From positions 40,610,001 through 40,674,000 of the forward strand of contig OX597820.1 of assembly GCA_951406725.2 (NCBI GenBank): DNA of 64,000 nucleotides. The letters are read 5' to 3'. The DNA is from Octopus vulgaris. Taxonomy: Eukaryota. Below are positions 14,184-63,513 of this stretch, in pieces. A program made the translations under genes and the position numbers. The notes beneath the pieces were generated by a model, which saw only the letters and a program-made list of their open reading frames with translations, had not been told where the DNA came from and did not search any database. Position 1 is the stretch's first letter. Each line of letters starts with the position of its first letter.

Positions 14184-16020
<1,837 letters not shown>

Positions 16021-33379: not shown

Positions 33380-34950
33380 TTTTGTTGACTGTTTTGTTTT
33401 CTGAACCCCTTTTCGTGTGCAGAAGGAGTCCGTTTGTTAAAAGTTCCCCCTTTTACGGGCGAATTTTGTGCTTGTAGCTCTTTTTCAAAACAATTTTTGT
33501 TGCTTCTCATTGAGAAGAACAAGATGTCTTCCTCTGTCGAGGAGAGTGGCAGTGACTGTTCTGACGGCCAATACCTCGATGATCCCCCCCACCCTCTGAA
33601 CAGCACAAATAACAGCACCAGTACTACCATTAACACAGAAAAAGAAAAGAATCAAGAAAACACCGCCAACGCAACTGCCGCCATGAACACAGACAACATG
33701 AACGAAAAAGAAAAGTCAAACAAGATAAACAACGGCTAACAAAGCGGCAACGGTCTCGCCTCTACGGCGAGACAAACGAAAGAAAAAATTAATTTTACTT
33801 TAGACGAGATAAAAAGATACAAAGGAATTGTTAAGGAGAGATGGGAACAATGTCCTCCTTAACAGCCCACAGAATTTAATAAGAGAGGCAAACAAAAAGA
33901 CAGTAACTTATAAAGTTTTGAACATAAAAAAGAAAAAGGACGAACAGGCCACTCAGCAACAGCTTGAGTTAATTCTAAAGCCTACATGGAAACAAAAGAC
34001 CTATGTGACTCAAGGAAGACGCTTCGGCACTGTGGAAATGCGTTTTGCAATAGAAGTAAAACAACATTCCACAGTGCCTTTCTAAACTGCTGGAGCTCCT
34101 TGTTCAAATTGAACAAGAAACAATAACCTCCATTTCCAATTTGATAAACCTGCATGATGGCAGCAGACTACGTCGCTGTGGAGGGCAGGAGGCCAAGATG
34201 TTACTTTTGTGGTGAACAAGGCCAACTCACGGTCTTCTGCCTTAAAGAAAAGGAGAGGCCATTTTGTTGACACCCGCACTGGAAGCACCTCCAGTACAGC
34301 AGCAACAACAACAGCAACAGATACAGCAGAAGCAGAAACCAGTGATCACCCAATCACCAACATCACCAGCGATACTACTTCCAGCTGTCGCCAGGGCACC
34401 ACAAACACCAACAACAAAGACACCAACCGGAGTACCACCACCACTAGCCAGAGTACCACAACCAACAGCCGGAGTACCACAACCACCAAACGGAGTATCA
34501 CCACTACTAGTAGCAGTAACATCACCACCAGCAGCTACTGTAGCAGCAACAAATGAACCCCAACAAATCCAAGACCTAGAGAAAATCCCCCTTCCCGTCC
34601 CAAACAACTCGGACTGTTCGAGTACTGAGATCGAGAGGGGGGATTGGCAAACAGTCCCTACACCCGCACCAAAAAAAGAAAAAAAAAGACTAAAGAGACA
34701 CTAGAAGAAGGGGGGGGGCGCAAAGAAGCGGAACTTCCCTACAGCAGTAACACTCACAACAATCAACAATAAAAACACCACCTCTTCCAGCACAATGTAC
34801 AACAAAAACAGACTCCACAAACACCACCAACCTCACAGCTATCAACACAGACAACGTAGATCTCGTTACACACCTCAGAAAAAAACACAAGCACCACAAT
34901 AGAAGACTGTCTGCTCAACACACAACGCGCCACCACCATCAATGTGATCG
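33380..34950 (+). mobile_element. Degraded ORF1 (gag-like) region of an L1/Tx1-like LINE
   Basis: VEGRRPRCYFCGEQGQLTVFC zinc-knuckle relic near 34178-34240, followed by Pro/Gln-rich sequence with 21-bp tandem repeats (34428-34510); frameshifted. Confidence 0.55.
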
Positions 34951-37051: not shown

Positions 37052-37102
37052 TATACATATATATATATACATATATATATATATACATATATATATATAC
37101 AT

Positions 37103-38504
37103 ATTGAGAGGGTGGTGAGATCTCAAATAACCCAATTTCTGGAAAGCAACAGACGGCTGATCTCCAACCAACATGGGTTCCGTAATGGAAGGGACTGCCT
37201 AACGCAGCTCCTGCATCACTTTGAGGACATTTTGAGAGCTTTGGGAGAGGGCTCCAACACCGATGTCATCTACCTTGATTTCAGTAAGGCCTTCGACAGG
37301 GTCGATCACAAGATCCTATTGAAAAAACTATCCAACATTGGTGTCTCTGGAAAGTTACTGAAATGGATTAAGTGTTTCCTGACAGACAGATCTCAACATG
37401 TTGTAGTTGAAGGGGTAAAATCAAGCCCAGCCAAAGTCAGTAGTGGCGTTCCGTGCTGGGCCCACTTCTTTTCATCATTTACATTAATGACATTAATGAC
37501 ATCATCAAGCACAGCAACATAAAAATCTTTGCAGATGACTCCAAGATACAGAAGGTCATAAATGAGGCGAGTGACCGGACATGCCTTCAGTCAGATCTAC
37601 TGGCTGTTATCCAATGGGCAGAAAAAAACAATATGCTGCTGAACGAGGATAAATTTGAGCTAATCCACTTTGGAAAAGAGGATGCCCTGAAACTCCCATA
37701 CTCCCTTCCTTCAGGTGAAACTCTCGCGGCGTCCAACAACATCAGAGACTTGGGAGTAATTGTGGACAACAACGTAAGCTGGGCCACTCATATAAACACC
37801 AAAGTTGACATGGCCCGCAGAATGTGTTCCTGGATTCTCAGAACTTTCCAGTCGAGAGATATCCACACCATTATCCTTCTCTTCTCCACTTTTGCCCGAC
37901 CCCACCTTGAATACTGTTGTCCACTGTGGTCTCCCCACACAATACAAGGTATCAAAAAAGTCGAAGCACCTCAAAGGGCAATCACAAAAAGATAGATGGC
38001 ATGACAGGCCTCGACTATTGGGGTCGACTAGAAAAGCTAAAACTCTATTCTCTCCAACGTCGTCGTGAGCGCTACATCATCTGCATGATGTGGAAAATAT
38101 TCCATCAGCATTGCCCAAATGATGTTGGCATCACCTTTAAGGTACATCCAAGGCTTGGGCCCCGTGCCATCCGCCCAAAACAAAAATCGCACTCTCATCT
38201 CATAACAACAATACGGCACAATTATTTCACCTCAATTGGCCCCGCTCTCTTTAACATTACACCAAAACACATTAAAACAGAAACTGACCCTATAGGGTTC
38301 AAGAAGTCTTTGGACAAATTCCTTCAAGAAATCCCGGATAAACCCCCTACACCCGGATATGTCTCTGTAAACAATAACTCTCTACTTGAGTGGGCCATAG
38401 TGCCCAAATTCTGACTTGAAAGACTTCACCAGGTGGTGCTATTAAGTTAGACATGGCCTGGGCCAATAATGGCCGAAACCTATCAAAGTATCAAAGTATC
38501 AAAG
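37103..38504 (+). mobile_element. 5'-truncated CR1/L2-group LINE (RT domain to 3' end), disrupted
   Basis: [39 protein letters not shown] and RPHLEYC motifs. Deletion near 37453 and frameshift near 37990. Octamer tail (tatcaaag)x3 at 38481-38504; inserted in (TA)n. Confidence 0.9.
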
Positions 38505-38506
38505 TA

Positions 38507-39504
<998 letters not shown>

Positions 39505-45296: not shown

Positions 45297-45352
<56 letters not shown>

Positions 45353-45578
45353 ATTAATCAATATAGGGTGGCAAAAAATTTTGTAGAATTCTTTTGCCAC
45401 CAGCGGCCTAGTAGGAAAAAATTAAAATAGTCATAGACCATTTTTAAGTTCAACATCAACAATAAAGGAACGGCCATAATAGGCCATTCACTCACTAGAA
45501 ATAACAGCCAAAGCTTCAACCGCAAATAAAAGTTAATTCAGTAAACCAGGAGAAAATTTAAAAAACATTTACCCTGTA

Positions 45579-45685
45579 ATTTCTTATACGATATACCGTT
45601 TCATCTGCTGATTAATGGTAAACTAACCTGATTAAATTAAATCAAGCCAATCTTCCACAGGCCCTCAGATTCTTCAGTAAGAAAT
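45579..45685 (-). ncRNA. Type I hammerhead ribozyme, unit 1
   Basis: Reverse complement of 48591-48697. Confidence 0.85.
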
Positions 45686-46072
45686 AGCCCAAGACGGAAC
45701 AGATATTTTCACGAGGCATTTCCGACGTTGCCAAGTTTATATCTGACCTAAAATTTTCAAATCGTCGCACTCGCGCCAAATTTATCGGCAGCAAATAAAT
45801 ATAAGCCGTCGATTCCATTACGGAATTAACCAGAAGATTCATAATTAATCAATATAGGGTGCCAAAAAAAATTTTGTAGAATTCTTTTGCCACCAGCGGC
45901 CTAGTAGGAAAAAATTAAAATAGTCATAGACCATTTTTAAGTTCAACATCAACAATAAAGGAACGGCCATAATAGGCCATTCACCCACTAGAAATAACAG
46001 CCAAAGCTTCAACCGCAAATAAAAGTTAATTCAGTAAACCAGGAGAAAATTTAAAAAAACATTTACCCTGTA

Positions 46073-46179
46073 ATTTCTTATACGATATACCGTTTCATCT
46101 GCTGATTAATGGTAAACTAACCTGATTAAATTAAATCAAGCCAATCTTCCACAGGCCCTCAGATTCTTCAGTAAGAAAT
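46073..46179 (-). ncRNA. Type I hammerhead ribozyme, unit 2
   Basis: Same motif. Confidence 0.85.
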
Positions 46180-46565
46180 AGCCCAAGACGGAACAGATAT
46201 TTTCACGAGGCATTTCCGACGTTGCCAAGTTTATATCTGACCTAAAATTTTCAAATCGTCGCACTCGCGCCAAATTTATCGGCAGCAAATAAATATAAGC
46301 CGTCGATTCCATTACGGAATTAACCAGAAAATTCATAATTAATCAATATAGGGTGCCAAAAAAAATTTTGTAGAATTCTTTTGCCACCAGCGGCCTAGTA
46401 GGAAAAAATTAAAATAGTCATAGACCATTTTTAAGTTCAACATCAACAATAAAGGAACGGCCATAATAGGCCATTCACCCACTAGAAATAACAGCCAAAG
46501 CTTCAACCGCAAATAAAAGTTAATTCAGTAAACCAGGAGAAAATTTAAAAAACATTTACCCTGTA

Positions 46566-46672
46566 ATTTCTTATACGATATACCGTTTCATCTGCTGATT
46601 AATGGTAAACTAACCTGATTAAATTAAATCAAGCCAATCTTCCACAGGCCCTCAGATTCTTCAGTAAGAAAT
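46566..46672 (-). ncRNA. Type I hammerhead ribozyme, unit 3
   Basis: Same motif. Confidence 0.85.
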
Positions 46673-47058
46673 AGCACAAGACGGAACAGATATTTTCACG
46701 AGGCATTTCCGACGTTGCCAAGTTTATATCTGACCTAAAATTTTCAAATCGTCGCACTCGCGCCAAATTTATCGGCAGCAAATAAATATAAGCCGTCGAT
46801 TCCATTACGGAATTAACCAGAAAATTCATAATTAATCAATATAGGGTGGCAAAAAAAATTTTGTAGAATTCTTTTGCCACCAGCGGCCTAGTAGGAAAAA
46901 ATTAAAATAGTCATAGACCATTTTTAAGTTCAACATCAACAATAAAGGAACGGCCATAATAGGCCATTCACCCACTAGAAATAACAGCCAAAGCTTCAAC
47001 CGCAAATAAAAGTTAATTCAGTAAACCAGGAGAAAATTTAAAAAACATTTACCCTGTA

Positions 47059-47165
47059 ATTTCTTATACGATATACCGTTTCATCTGCTGATTAATGGTA
47101 AACTAACCTGATTAAATTAAATCAAGCCAATCTTCCACAGGCCCTCAGATTCTTCAGTAAGAAAT
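47059..47165 (-). ncRNA. Type I hammerhead ribozyme, unit 4
   Basis: Same motif. Confidence 0.85.
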
Positions 47166-47551
47166 AGCCCAAGACGGAACAGATATTTTCACGAGGCATT
47201 TCCGACGTTGCCAAGTTTATATCTGACCTAAAATTTTCAAATCGTCGCACTCGCGCCAAATTTATCGGCAGCAAATAAATATAAGCCGTCGATTCCATTA
47301 CGGAATTAACCAGAAAATTCATAATTAATCAATATAGGGTGGCAAAAAAAATTTTGTAGAATTCTTTTGCCACCAGCGGCCTAGTAGGAAAAAATTAAAA
47401 TAGTCATAGACCATTTTTAAGTTCAACATCAACAATAAAGGAACGGCCATAATAGGCCATTCACCCACTAGAAATAACAGCCAAAGCTTCAACCGCAAAT
47501 AAAAGTTAATTCAGTAAACCAGGAGAAAATTTAAAAAACATTTACCCTGTA

Positions 47552-47658
47552 ATTTCTTATACGATATACCGTTTCATCTGCTGATTAATGGTAAACTAAC
47601 CTGATTAAATTAAATCAAGCCAATCTTCCACAGGCCCTCAGATTCTTCAGTAAGAAAT
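47552..47658 (-). ncRNA. Type I hammerhead ribozyme, unit 5
   Basis: Same motif. Confidence 0.85.
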
Positions 47659-48044
47659 AGCCCAAGACGGAACAGATATTTTCACGAGGCATTTCCGACG
47701 TTGCCAAGTTTATATCTGACCTAAAATTTTCAAATCGTCGCACTCGCGCCAAATTTATCGGCAGCAAATAAATATAAGCCGTCGATTCCATTACGGAATT
47801 AACCAGAAAATTCATAATTAATCAATATAGGGTGGCAAAAAAAATTTTGTAGAATTCTTTTGCCACCAGCGGCCTAGTAGGAAAAAATTAAAATAGTCAT
47901 AGACCATTTTTAAGTTCAACATCAACAATAAAGGAACGGCCATAATAGGCCATTCACCCACTAGAAATAACAGCCAAAGCTTCAACCGCAAATAAAAGTT
48001 AATTCAGTAAACCAGGAGAAAATTTAAAAAACATTTACCCTGTA

Positions 48045-48151
48045 ATTTCTTATACGATATACCGTTTCATCTGCTGATTAATGGTAAACTAACCTGATTA
48101 AATTAAATCAAGCCAATCTTCCACAGGCCCTCAGATTCTTCAGTAAGAAAT
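48045..48151 (-). ncRNA. Type I hammerhead ribozyme, unit 6
   Basis: Same motif. Confidence 0.85.
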
Positions 48152-48590
48152 AGCCCAAGACGGAACAGATATTTTCACGAGGCATTTCCGACGTTGCCAA
48201 GTTTATATCTGACCTAAAATTTTCAAATCGTCGCACTCGCGCCAAATTTATCGGCAGCAAATAAATATAAGCCGTCGATTCCATTACGGAATTAACCAGA
48301 AAATTCATGGCCGTTCCTTTATTGTTGATGTTGAACTTAAAAATGGTCTATGACTATTTTAATTTTTTCCTACTAGGCCGCTGGTGGCAAAAGAATTCTA
48401 CAAAATTTTTTTGCCACCCTATATTGATTAATTATGAATTTTCTGGTTAATTCCGTAATGGAATCGACGGCTTATATTTATTTGCTGCCGATAAATTTGG
48501 CGCGAGTGCGACGATTTGAAAATTTTAGGTCAGATATAAACTTGGCAACGTCGGAAATGCCTCGTGAAAATATCTGTTCCGTCTTGGGCT

Positions 48591-48697
48591 ATTTCTTACT
48601 GAAGAATCTGAGGGCCTGTGGAAGATTGGCTTGATTTAATTTAATCAGGTTAGTTTACCATTAATCAGCAGATGAAACGGTATATCGTATAAGAAAT
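48591..48697 (+). ncRNA. Type I hammerhead ribozyme, inverted unit 1
   Basis: Stem I ATTTCTTA (48591-98) pairs with TAAGAAAT (48690-97). Core CTGAAGA at 48599-605. Stem II ATCTG (48606-10) pairs with CAGAT (48669-73). GAAA at 48674-77. Stem III CGG-tata-TCG. GUA triplet with predicted cut after 48689. Confidence 0.88.
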
Positions 48698-49085
48698 TAC
48701 AGGGTAAATGTTTTTTAAATTTTCTCCTGGTTTACTGAATTAACTTTTTTTGCAGTTGAAGCTTTGGCTGTTATTTCTAGTGGGTGAATGGCCTATTATG
48801 GCCGTTCCTTTATTGTTGATGTTGAACTTAAAAATGGTCTATGACTATTTTAATTTTTTCCTACTAGGCCGCTGGTGGCAAAAGAATTCTACAAAATTTT
48901 TTTTTTTGCCAATCTATATTGATTAATTATGAATTTTCTGGTTAATTCCGTAATGGAATCGACGGCTTATATTTATTTGCTGCCGATAAATTTGGCGCGA
49001 GTGCGACGATTTGAAAATTTTAGGTCAGATATAAACTTGGCAACGTCGGAAATGCCTCGTGAAAATATCTGTTCCGTCTTGGGCT

Positions 49086-49192
49086 ATTTCTTACTGAAGA
49101 ATCTGAGGGCCTGTGGAAGATTGGCTTGATTTAATTTAATCAGGTTAGTTTACCATTAATCAGCAGATGAAACGGTATATCGTATAAGAAAT
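49086..49192 (+). ncRNA. Type I hammerhead ribozyme, inverted unit 2
   Basis: Same motif. Confidence 0.85.
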
Positions 49193-49311
49193 TACAGGGT
49201 AAATGTTTTTAAATTTTCTCCTGGTTTACTGAATTAACTTTTATTTGCGGTTGAAGCTTTGGCTGTTATTTCTAGTGGGTGAATGGCCTATTATGGCCGT
49301 TCCTTTATTGT

Positions 49312-49356
<45 letters not shown>

Positions 49357-59534: not shown

Positions 59535-62500
59535 TCATGTCAGGTCTCCGCTTGGAGCTACTGGTAACATGTAACCCAGTACAACCTGTTACATGGTCGG
59601 GTCGTTGGCGACTAAACTGGCAACCCCACCAAGATTTCTTGGTGAGGAGGGTGATTTGGACACCCAGCAGGACTAAAAACAAAACCTGTCAAAGGGCAGA
59701 GGAACTCTCTCATGAGTCAATGGCCATCCAAAATCCGGAGTGGAGCCCCTAAGGCGGTTGGATTGCGCCATGCGTGCCACCTTCCGGCAGCTCCTGCATC
59801 TTGGTCTACCCCCAGTCGTCTTGACTTTGTCTTGCCACTGGATCCGGCGCACCAGGACGAGAGAGTGAGGCTGATCCTGCGCAAGTCACCCTCACTATAA
59901 TCCAAGTCACGCGCATGTCACGACATCATGACGCCATGACACCATCCCAAAGTCCTGTGGCGATGGGGAAACGGCGAAGTAGCAGGTGAGGATACACTGG
60001 GAGCTGCAGTCGTGAACCCACACACAGGCGGCTCAGGACATGTGGTCGCCCCTCACTGAACTGAGGCAGCAGTGGAGTCCGGCAGCCTCCTGAGTGACCG
60101 AGCAGCCCTCTTCAGGATCGCTCTGCTCGCCTCCCCAGCATGAGGACGGGGCTAGAAAAGGTTGCCCTAAACATAGCCTGCCTCACCTCACCCTGGTCAG
60201 CAAACCGCGGCTGGCGGGGATCCTTTCCAAGCGGTCGAAACAAAGAAAGAAGAAAACAAACAAAGGTGCTCACTTTCGCAACTTGGAACGTGAGAACTCT
60301 GCTTGACAACACCAAAGCGGACAGACCAGAGAGACGAACTGCCCTGGTGGCCAGAGAACTGAGCCGATACAGTGTCGATATTGCAGCACTGAGCGAGACC
60401 CGCCTTGCGGACAAAGGCCAGCTGACAGAGACAGGCGGCGGCTACACTTTCTTTTGGAGTGGTCGCAGCAGCGAAGAGCGTCGTGAGGCTGGTGTTGGTT
60501 TTGCCATTAAGTCAGTACACGTGCGGAAACTGGAAAGCCCCCCGAGGGTATCAACGATCGGCTGATGAAGATGCAGCTCCCACTTGGAAACAAGACTAGT
60601 GCGACCATCATCAGTGCTTACGCCCCCACCATGACCAACCCTGAAGAAGTTAAGGACAGGTTCTATGAGGAACTCGACTCCCTCATCACGTCAGCCCAGC
60701 CTGGGAAGCTCATCCTCCTTGGGGATTTTAACGCCCGTGTCGGGACTGACCACCAAGCCTGGCATCGCGTACTGGGAAAGCAAGGAATCGGAAAGTGCAA
60801 CAGCAACGGACAGCTCCTCCTGCGTGCGTGTGCCTCTCATGATCTTACCATCGCCAACACCTTGTTCCGTCTGCCAACACGCAACAAGACATCATGGATG
60901 CATCCACGCTCCAAACACTGGCATCTGATAGATTACGTCATCGTCAGGGCGAAAGACAGGCGGGACGTGAGACTGGTCAAAGCCATGTGCGGAGCTGACT
61001 GCTGGACGGACCATCGCCTCATCATCTCCAGGATGGATTTCTACATCCGACCTAAGAGAAGACCACAGGGTCAGAAAGTGACGAGGAAGCTTAACATCAC
61101 GAAATTAAAGAACCAGCTGACTGCACAAGATCTCCAGTCACGTATGGACAGTAAGCTGTTGGACATTCGGAGTGACCAGTCCAGCATCGATGAGCAGTGG
61201 GAATCATTCAGGGACACGGTTCATTCCATCGCCCTTGAAACTCTGGGCCAAATTACGAGGAACCACCAGGACTGGTTCGACGAAAACGACCAGGAAATCC
61301 AAAAGCTCCTGGAAGAGAAACGCCGTCTGCTGCGGGCTCACCAAAATGACACCACCTGCACGGCAAAGAAGGCCGCTTTCAACAACATTCGCAGCACAGT
61401 CCAGGCTAAACTCCGCCTCATGCAAGACGCATGGTTAAGCGCCAAGGCGGATGAGATTCAGGGATACGCAGACAAACACGACACCAAGAAATTCTACGAG
61501 GCGCTGAAAGCTGTCTATGGACCGCAGTTCTCCTTTGGATCAACCCCCCTGCTCAGCTCAGATGGAACCTCACTCCTGACTAACAAGAGGCTGATCCTGG
61601 AGAGATGGGCGGAGCACTTCAACATCGTGCTCAACCGACCAGCTCAGATCAACGAGGAAGCCATCGCACGACTCCCCCAGGTGCTGACAAACCACGAGTT
61701 GGCTGTTCCCCCTGCAGTCGAGGAAGTGAGCAGAGCCATCAAAAAAATGTCCACCGGCAAAGCTCCAGGCTCTGACGCCATCCCTGCAGAGGTGTTCAAG
61801 TCGGGCGGCCCCACCATGATCAGTCAGCTCACCAGCCTGTTCCAGTCGATGTGGGACAGGGAACAACTCCCTCAAGATTTCCGGGATGCAACAATCGTTC
61901 ACATTTATAAGCGGAAAGGAGATCGGCAGTCCTGCGACAACCACCGAGGTATTTCCCTCTTGTCCATAGCAGGCAAGATCCTGGCCCGGGTCCTGCTTGA
62001 CCGCCTTCTGGAACACTTGGAGCAAGGCCTTCTCCCTGAGAGCCAGTGTGGCTTCCGTGCGGGTCGAGGGACCACTGACATGATATTCGCCACCCGCCAG
62101 CTCCAGGAGAAATGCATGGAGCAGCACCTTGACCTCTGCATGACCTTTGTTGACCTCACCAAGGCCTTTGATACAGTCAGTCGGGAGGGACTATGGAAGG
62201 TCATGGGAAAATTTGGTTGCCCCAGCAAATTTATTGCAATTGTCCGCCAGTTCCACGACGGAATGACAGCCAGAATCCTTGAAGACGGCGACTCATCTGA
62301 AGCCTTCCAGGTGACCAACGGAGTCAGGCAGGGCTGTGTCCTGGCCCCAACACTGTTCAGCATCATGTTCTCGGCAATGATGTCCGACGCCTTTAGGGAC
62401 TGCAAGTCCGGTATCAACATCAAGTACAGGACAGACGGGAAACTTTTCAACTCCAGGAGATTGCAGGCTGTCACAAAGGTGAGGGAGACAGTCGTCAGAG

Positions 62501-63513
62501 ACTTTCTCTTTGCTGACGACTGCGCCCTTAATGCAATCGATGAGCAGGAGATGCAGCTCGAGATGGACAGGTTCTCATCAGCCTGTGACAACTTCGGTCT
62601 CACCATCAGTGCAAAGAAAACTGAAGTGATGTTTCAGCCAGCCCCCGGCAAACAATACCATGAGCCTCAGATAAGGGTGAACGGACGGATCCTACGAGTG
62701 GTGGAAAACTTCACCTACCTGGGCAGCACTCTCTCCTGCAATGCCAACATAGATGCTGAAACCATCAACAGAATCTCCAAGGCAAGCAGCGCGTTTGGGA
62801 GACTGCGAAAGAAAGTCTGGGAGCGGAGAGGAATCAGCCTCAACACCAAGCTGAAAGTCTACCGGGCAGTCGTGCTTACCACCCTACTATACGGCTGCGA
62901 GACGTGGACTGCTTACCGAAGGCACGAGCGCCAGATAAACCACTTCCATCTCAGGTGTCTTCGGAATCTCCTTCACATCCGCTGGCAGGACAAAGTCCCA
63001 GACACGGAAGTTCTGAAGCAGGCAGATCTCCCTAGCACCATCACAATCATGCGCAAGGCCCAGCTGAGATGGGCGGGCCACGTCTCCCGCATGTCCGACA
63101 CTCGCATCCCAAAACAGCTCTTCTACGGTGAACTCGGCCAGGGCAGGCGCAAAGTCGGAGGGCAGAAAAAGCGCTACAAGGATAGTCTCAAGGTCTCTCT
63201 CAAAGACTTCTCCATCGGAACAGAGACCTGGGAGACACTTGCTGCCAACCGCTCATCCTGGCGCAGCGCAATCACCGTGGGAGCAGGGACAGCCGAGGAG
63301 GGACGGATTCGGTCAGCGGAGCAGAAACGTCAGATGCGTAAAGTCAGAGCCGCCTGCACCAGTAGCACTGCCCCTACCCACTTCTGCCCCACCTGTGGGA
63401 GGGGTTTCCTTGCCCGTATTGGCCTCACCAGCCACCTCCAGTCTCATGGCGGCAGTTCCATCAGATGATGTCAGTTGGTCATCTTCGAACCGAAGGACGA
63501 ACATTATCATTAT
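59535..63513 (+). mobile_element. Full-length RTE-clade LINE
   Basis: 13-bp TSD tatacttatacat at 59522-59534 and 63514-63526. 5' UTR of about 600 nt, a single EN-RT ORF, a short 3' UTR and a (cattat) tail. Confidence 0.93.
60140..63468 (+). CDS. RTE polyprotein: AP endonuclease, reverse transcriptase and C-terminal C2H2 finger; one frameshift near 60540
   Basis: EN motifs TWNVRTL, LSET, GDFNA, IDYV and TDH. RT motifs QCGFR, VDLTKAFD, GVRQG and FADD. C-terminal CPTC...H...H. ORFs 60140-60565 and 60565-63468 fuse if one C is added to the C6 run at 60538-60543. Confidence 0.9.

Follow-up and report, generated by a model that had tools for sequence, protein, structure and literature searches.

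Organisation of the hammerhead array

Analysis of a 64,000-nucleotide stretch of the Octopus vulgaris genome (assembly GCA_951406725.2, contig OX597820.1, positions 40,610,001 to 40,674,000 of the forward strand; hereafter the window) revealed an array of retrozyme units, each carrying a hammerhead ribozyme, which we have designated family A. Tandem Repeats Finder resolved the array into 6.0 copies of 493 nt (45350–48308) and 2.0 copies of 495 nt (48307–49315). A preliminary description made from the sequence of the window had reported eight hammerheads at ~493-nt spacing. The eight motifs and a period of 493–495 nt were recovered, but the motifs do not form a single head-to-tail array: the minus strand carries six of them and the plus strand two, with the ribozyme sense running outward from the central junction. 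The two arms meet head-to-head with a 2-nt overlap, and (TA)n is present at both outer ends (Table 1). Because the arms are inverted and joined in this way, only six complete cut-to-cut monomers are present in the region. Units were numbered such that position 1 is the first base 3′ of the GUA cut.

Other details of that description held: the eight 107-nt motifs are complete type I hammerheads, letter-for-letter identical to each other, none of the differences between the window units is inside the motif, and the predicted cut after 48689 agrees with the motif in the copy that it named.

Table 1. Features of the family A insertion in the window, and copies of the sister families at other loci
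Feature	Position	Strand	Remarks
Left (TA)n/(TG)n microsatellite	45297–45349		Part of target site
Left arm	45350–48308	-	6.0 units; outer long 'tailed' end at unit 239, inner 5′-truncated end at 238
Tail of ~105 nt	45350–45454	-	Unit 133–239; left outer end only; boundary computed from alignment
Five complete cut-to-cut monomers	45587–48052	-	493–494 nt
Type I hammerhead	45579–45685	-	Cut after 45587
Type I hammerhead	46073–46179	-	Cut after 46081
Type I hammerhead	46566–46672	-	Cut after 46574
Type I hammerhead	47059–47165	-	Cut after 47067
Type I hammerhead	47552–47658	-	Cut after 47560
Type I hammerhead	48045–48151	-	Cut after 48053
Head-to-head junction	48307–48308		Two 5′-truncated arms, 2-nt microhomology
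Right arm	48307–49315	+	~2.05 units; inner end at unit 110, outer short precise end at 132
Type I hammerhead	48591–48697	+	Extended stem II; cut after 48689
One complete cut-to-cut monomer	48690–49184	+	495 nt
Type I hammerhead	49086–49192	+	Cut after 49184
Right (TA)n microsatellite	49316–49351		Part of target site
Families B and C copies	L112:2244–2734 (B); L112:3054–3523 (C); L100:6534–6991

Structure and conservation of the hammerhead

Each motif consists of an 8-bp stem I, CUGAAGA, a 5-bp proximal stem II, GAAA, a 4-bp stem III and the GUA site. Stem II is not a short hairpin; it extends to a long hairpin with internal loops, with 68 nt between CUGAAGA and GAAA. The Infernal search against Rfam that had been proposed as a check failed to detect the motif, giving 0 matches at gathering score in the window and five weak matches up to E=10, none to a hammerhead family; the Rfam hammerhead models probably miss it because of these 68 nt. 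As to loop 1–loop 2 contacts, stem II has this long, internally looped form and no Rfam hammerhead model matches; mussel retrozymes lack the usual contacts (PMC7229834; this source, PMC4209133, PMC11167929, PMC13282606 and 10.1101/2021.04.23.441226 are cited throughout for the available part of their text).

An alignment of four family A copies with four copies of its sister family B showed that 8 of 14 stem pairs differ on both sides. Across family A, an older copy and family B, 99.1% of stem cells were paired compared to 30–46% in slid-partner controls. The shuffle control overstates the covariation because the eight rows represent about two lineages and a handful of independent changes. The older family A copy has changed the closing pair of stem I from A-U to G-C by itself. 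Complete cores were intact in 194 of 197 cases across the 52 family A loci analysed (see below). None of the ~21 distinct locus-fixed variants was in the core or proximal stems, a number too small for a significant sign of selection; those inside the motif were at the free N7 position, at pairs that are kept (G432A, A451G, A456G), in a loop (one change) and at one pair that is broken (T423A). Stem III, read from the sequence, is self-complementary, and a short self-complementary stem III is an arrangement that permits double hammerheads in tandem RNA (PMC4209133). Taken on its sequence, the family A hammerhead is likely to self-cleave. A conserved blocking helix in the circle was also considered, for which we make no claim: the active fold costs only 2.2 kcal/mol (A) or 2.6 kcal/mol (B), and the blocking folds differ.

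Dispersal, coding status and sister families

A search of the 2.8-Gb genome gave 711 candidates, the best 39 of which were scored; these yielded 265 matches, and the 150 listed were mostly 97–100% identical and were distributed over 20 contigs. This agreed with the expectation in the preliminary description of a young, non-coding, dispersed family with a hammerhead in every unit. With two short queries, contig C1 alone was found to have no fewer than 19 insertions that include a stretch matching perfectly, and scaling from this contig puts the genome-wide number of such insertions at roughly 240 as a lower bound. The 52 loci analysed (numbered with the prefix L) comprised the window, 37 of 38 fetched loci (L039, a duplicate of L038, was dropped) and 14 further loci; the first 38 were the best-scoring full-unit matches, which biases them to long arrays. 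Segments of <84% identity and homopolymer positions were dropped. Within loci, 147 differences were counted over 90,570 positions. Among the locus-fixed variants of the first sample, G>A was common on the RNA strand and C>T was absent, although numbers were small.

The unit has a GC content of 35%. Its earlier characterisation as long for such elements was borne out against the 150–450 bp given in PMC7229834 but not against the 51–972 bp reported for vertebrate retrozymes (10.64898/2026.07.22.740005). The longest ATG frame encodes 66 amino acids (aa), has no counterpart in families B and C and was taken as chance. The unit contains no open reading frame (ORF) for a reverse transcriptase (RT) plus GIY-YIG endonuclease, and no unit at the 52 loci is joined to coding sequence. 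No unique sequence was seen between units and there is no long terminal repeat (LTR) architecture; primer-binding sites and polypurine tracts were not searched for. As to expression, no RNA run was listed as a source of the unit, and contigs from runs whose type was guessed were not used as evidence. A 523-nt contig in set X1, longer than one unit, bridges the cut site, which is equally expected from a circle or a tandem DNA array. Around the core, a contig at depth <5 in set X4 shows seven listed A>G differences; these may be due to editing, to an old copy or to error.

Families B (491 nt, ~70% identical to A) and C (470 nt) were both found beside other copies and are hammerhead retrozymes with the same two-end, head-to-head insertions. 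Family C is weakly similar to A (4/200 shuffles). The family B search gave 1802 candidates; as the query that retrieved its loci already had this shape, no count of the end rule is given for B. At L118:4816–4898 there is another hammerhead-like motif, unrelated to these, in which the stem II region measures 54 nt.

Anatomy of the insertions

Two arms were present at 42 of the 52 loci and all 42 were head-to-head. At 40 of these, one outer end was at unit 125–134 and the other at 229–243, the exceptions being L049 and L054; the short end was exactly at unit 132 in 37 of the 40. The long end exceeds the short end by ~105 nt, forming a tail on one side only (40/42). Ten loci were single-armed by BLAST, of which L053 and L058 have a 16-nt long-end stub on the opposite side. 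Both flanks were (TA)n at 49/52 loci, where it masks any target-site duplication. The inner ends were scattered and joined mostly over 1–5 common bases, some with filler; they clustered at unit 1–30, just past the cut (17/94; 11/70 in the first sample), with a second cluster at 200–230 (12/94). The arms are not mirror images, as both their outer ends and their inner breakpoints differ. Additionally, insertions of different families adjoin in one (TA)n tract, even at the end of a Penelope-like element (PLE), at L123, L064, L070, L112 and L100.

An inverted, 5′-truncated copy with a tail on one end only is the signature of PLEs (10.1101/2021.04.23.441226). The PLE enzyme of Anolis nicks and extends both strands of AT-rich DNA, and in vitro the tail spans the interval from one of its two internal RT start sites to the other (PMC11167929). 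The family A ends point to two priming events per insertion, one precise at 132 and one looser and guided by microhomology near 239. Mobilisation by a Penelope-like RT had been cited in the preliminary description, and the head-to-head arms, the two fixed ends, the (TA)n target and a chimera of family B with a PLE (below) support it; that description overlooked the inversion and the fixed ends, which hold most of the information.

Haplotypes and unit junctions

The variants within family A loci comprised 44 that were fixed across all covering units, 14 that were present in a multi-unit minority and 120 singletons. The arms agreed at between-locus markers in 13 of 14 informative loci, with 2/22 sites discordant compared to 94.5% under permutation (0/5000). 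Seven locus-private variants, from six loci, were present in both arms; 25 others were in one arm only, 15 of these in the older L157. Cut-site junctions were exact in 206 of 211 cases; of the other five, three have a single-base change, one has a 6-nt duplication and one was miscounted at the centre of a palindrome. Arrays of 2–3 kb without any internal difference were found at L031, L044, L037 and L028.

The fixed variants, the agreement of the arms and the exact junctions together therefore indicate a one-unit bottleneck at each insertion followed by scarless re-amplification. Rolling-circle copying of a ligated monomer is the simplest explanation of this pattern, and a moderately probable one; such copying has been proposed for PLEs (PMC4209133) and for retrozymes (PMC7229834). 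That linear or multimeric templates, or exchange at a later time, are involved as well is shown by L157, the minority variants and the surplus of inner ends past the cut site. The exact junctions disfavour a further model, template jumping from one cleaved monomer to another.

Resident Penelope-like elements and the L119 chimera

A GIY-YIG search, in which the best 150 of 6136 candidates were scored, revealed young PLEs. PLE1 has a 781-aa RT-endonuclease frame and accounted for 16 of the 148 matches listed; PLE2 has a 775-aa RT-endonuclease frame, 47% identical to that of PLE1, within a 4,270-bp unit that also has an upstream frame. Both carry, in the linker, the zinc-finger motif known from Neptune and Nematis, and PLE2 is probably of the Neptune/Nematis type. 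In a separate search (12,330 candidates), 138 of the 141 scored PLE2 copies were 100% identical over a 272–273-aa query. In both PLE1 (L099–L108) and PLE2 (L134–L147, L162–L163), the upstream frame of 450–480 aa overlaps the RT frame in the -1 register, and the PLE2 overlap has a slippery-looking T-run; programmed frameshifting would be a guess.

Eight of 13 PLE2 loci besides the chimera were two-armed, and in all eight a short end was paired with a tailed one in (TA)n. Locus variants were shared between PLE2 arms and tandem units, including three units within a 12-kb arm on C23. PLE2 forms a palindrome at L162–L163 (G000:C23:4582000–4601999) that measures 17 kb or more and has variants common to both arms in its 4.27-kb units; it looks as if the autonomous PLE2 was also copied round a circle. 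A minimal hammerhead variant, identified by eye, lies 139 nt before the short end of PLE2, the corresponding distance in family A being 132. In PLE1, a U3-A8 hammerhead variant, also identified by eye, lies 65 nt before its end. PLE1 was considered as the driver of family A and has the same target and a 40-nt tail; its cut-to-end distance is 65 nt, and neither a chimera nor homology was found.

The most direct link between retrozymes and PLEs is L119, in which a family B short-end arm and 1.9 kb of tailed PLE2 meet head-to-head across 3 nt, with no (TA)n at the joint. The chimera search also covered L158 and L159, which adjoin ordinary genomic sequence. Beside 20 GIY-YIG loci no family A match was found, the sole match being to family C, in a nested copy; the survey did not extend fully to other PLE families.

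Proposed mechanism and alternative explanations

We propose that family A is a 493-nt non-autonomous retrozyme, probably mobilised by a resident PLE, whose RT and GIY-YIG endonuclease it would use, by way of a circular monomer template. That its insertion is PLE-driven is very likely in itself, and PLE2 is, by a somewhat better than even chance, the driver. Transcripts of the arrays would self-cleave at each hammerhead and a host ligase would close the monomers into circles, as in known retrozymes. The PLE protein would nick both (TA)n strands and prime reverse transcription twice on the RNA, as suggested by the Anolis PLE, precisely at unit 132 and loosely, through AT microhomology, at 229–243, the positions at which the ends were observed. 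Each cDNA would then round the circle for a random distance, which would give the observed pattern of two tandem arms, 50–4,600 bp in length and of one haplotype. Joining of the truncated ends, seen at the loci as head-to-head junctions mostly over a few common bases, would complete the insertion.

Several points weigh against this reading. In vitro, uncleaved RNA served as template for the Anolis PLE, whose hammerhead was dispensable (PMC11167929), 8 of 9 Xenopus retrozyme dimers failed to cleave (10.64898/2026.07.22.740005), and in family A the isolated motif has its lowest-energy fold in another register (-31.4 kcal/mol compared to -29.6 kcal/mol for the active fold) and a stem III of only four pairs. 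The 14 multi-unit minority variants (e.g. C393A in 5/8 units of L042 and C305T in 3/9 of L058) and the discordant L157 do not fit a single monomer circle. The window array has the commonest family A haplotype and is uninformative on sharing between arms; a shared haplotype is moreover not proof of one molecule, because the L119 chimera shows that arms from two RNAs are possible. That chimera is a single event, L120 being a duplicate of L119; it involves family B and might have arisen by deletion between neighbours; no family A–PLE chimera was found among the 52 loci, including 14 picked because they looked single-armed. Comparison of family A with the 3′ regions of PLE1 and PLE2 revealed no similarity, as 56/200 and 59/200 shuffles, respectively, scored as high.

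An unlikely but substantial alternative is that the PLE inserts copies of a linear multimeric transcript, either uncleaved or cleaved in part, and that unequal exchange builds or rebuilds the long arrays later, for which no circle is needed. The minority variants, some of them three units apart, are consistent with it, as are the use of uncleaved RNA by the Anolis enzyme and the enrichment of inner ends at 1–30, as for cleaved 5′ template ends; satellite-type local amplification is favoured for vertebrate retrozymes (10.64898/2026.07.22.740005). However, variants common to several loci were nearly always fixed inside each locus, and both arms are often multi-unit. The 120:14 ratio of singletons to multi-unit minority variants indicates that exchange is slow relative to mutation, the correlation of array length with internal diversity was not significant (rho 0.26, p 0.11, 39 loci), and the 4.27-kb PLE2 units are equally homogeneous. 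The enrichment at 1–30 could instead reflect RT stalling at stem I or at a hairpin at 11–41, and there is the second cluster at 200–230.

It is improbable that the unit is the terminal repeat (pseudo-LTR, pLTR) of an autonomous PLE beyond the reach of the searches, the arrays being truncated copies of it. Each family A search scored the best 39–40 of 711–1164 candidates and the GIY-YIG search the best 150 of 6136, and Xenopus retrozymes match PLE termini (10.64898/2026.07.22.740005), all of which leaves room for such an element; against it stand the absence of coding sequence joined to a unit at the 52 loci, the direct abutment of up to nine units in a row and the like behaviour of families B and C. 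A DNA-level satellite, a fold-back element or an assembly artefact with an incidental hammerhead is hardly credible: there is no Rfam hammerhead match and palindromes can be assembly artefacts, but the arms are not mirror images, the stems covary, nearly all complete cores are intact and an autonomous PLE shows the same architecture.

Returning to the circular template, we suggest tentatively, as a proposal that is plausible though not the probable outcome, that in this genome retrozymes and the 4.27-kb PLE2 have a common mode of copying, in which a two-headed RT-endonuclease uses RNA circles generated by hammerheads and primes both target strands at two different RNA sites. If true, this would account for three features of PLEs, namely tandem pLTRs, an inverted arm and a tail on one side (the origin of PLE tandem and inverted structures has been called undefined, 10.1101/2021.04.23.441226), and family A would be a parasite that mimics PLE2 by RNA shape and spacing without sequence homology.

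In the literature compared, insertion of retrozymes by a PLE enzyme is still a hypothesis, as is circular RNA as the template for cDNA longer than the unit (PMC4209133, PMC7229834). Family A gives unusually direct genomic evidence on this mechanism: it is young enough that each insertion still records the template haplotype and both priming sites, and the candidate enzyme, PLE2, is present in the same genome in >100 identical copies. The 493-nt RNA, with its predicted start sites, and the 775-aa RT-endonuclease form a ready pair for an in vitro test. Family A-type insertions also seed kilobase palindromes across the genome, and the Rfam models miss hammerheads with a long stem II.

Other features of the window

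A near-intact long interspersed nuclear element (LINE), which we take to be RTE-like, is present at 60098–63468 (+) and encodes an endonuclease and a 985-aa RT frame. Broken LINE fragments at 14294–15110 and 37100–38414 (+) presumably carry RT and restriction-like endonuclease motifs; the second is followed by a 1-kb (TA)n tract (38508–39501). A 152-aa frame rich in Gln, Pro and Thr, with a basic stretch at its end, at 34246–34704 (+) may be an exon.

Comparison with known systems

The literature compared contained no description of family A, and for retrozymes it described neither PLE chimeras nor arm haplotypes nor two fixed ends, although bioRxiv supplements may list invertebrate families; the available text of a recent octopus repeat annotation (PMC13282606) does not mention ribozymes. 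Non-autonomous elements of Chlamys such as MRC1 differ from family A in that they resemble their autonomous partners at the 3′ end and are mostly without hammerheads (10.1101/2021.04.23.441226).

Like family A, endonuclease-bearing (EN+) PLEs of the Neptune/Nematis type and Poseidon PAc of Anolis have an inverted 5′-truncated copy, a tail at one end, a microsatellite target and two RT start sites downstream of the hammerhead (PMC11167929; 10.1101/2021.04.23.441226). Family A differs from them in having no ORF, a tail of ~105 nt compared to 30–40 nt, and a full three-helix hammerhead whereas theirs is a minimal motif.

Vertebrate retrozymes have been defined by two or more successive units bearing a complete type I hammerhead (Li, Clavereau and Pollet, 10.64898/2026.07.22.740005), an arrangement which family A also has, and both co-occur with PLEs. 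Those authors argued from co-occurrence and from pLTR homology that retrozymes are non-autonomous PLE derivatives, and suggested local amplification. In contrast, family A has no detectable pLTR homology, its link to PLEs being through insertion anatomy and the chimera, and its variant pattern favours arrays that were long at birth.

The animal non-LTR retrozymes of coral, mussel and axolotl (Cervera and de la Pena 2020, PMC7229834) share with family A non-coding, low-GC tandem units with one type I hammerhead each, dispersed arrays, a proposed mobilisation by PLEs and a proposed circular template. The 493-nt unit and the extension of stem II to a 68-nt hairpin set family A apart, as do its insertions into (TA)n, with two arms joined head-to-head and both ends fixed, a layout that the available text of that paper does not describe (0 occurrences of 'inverted'). 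RNA and cleavage have been shown for those retrozymes, whereas family A is known from its sequence; by its sequence features, family A is a new family of the known animal non-LTR retrozymes.

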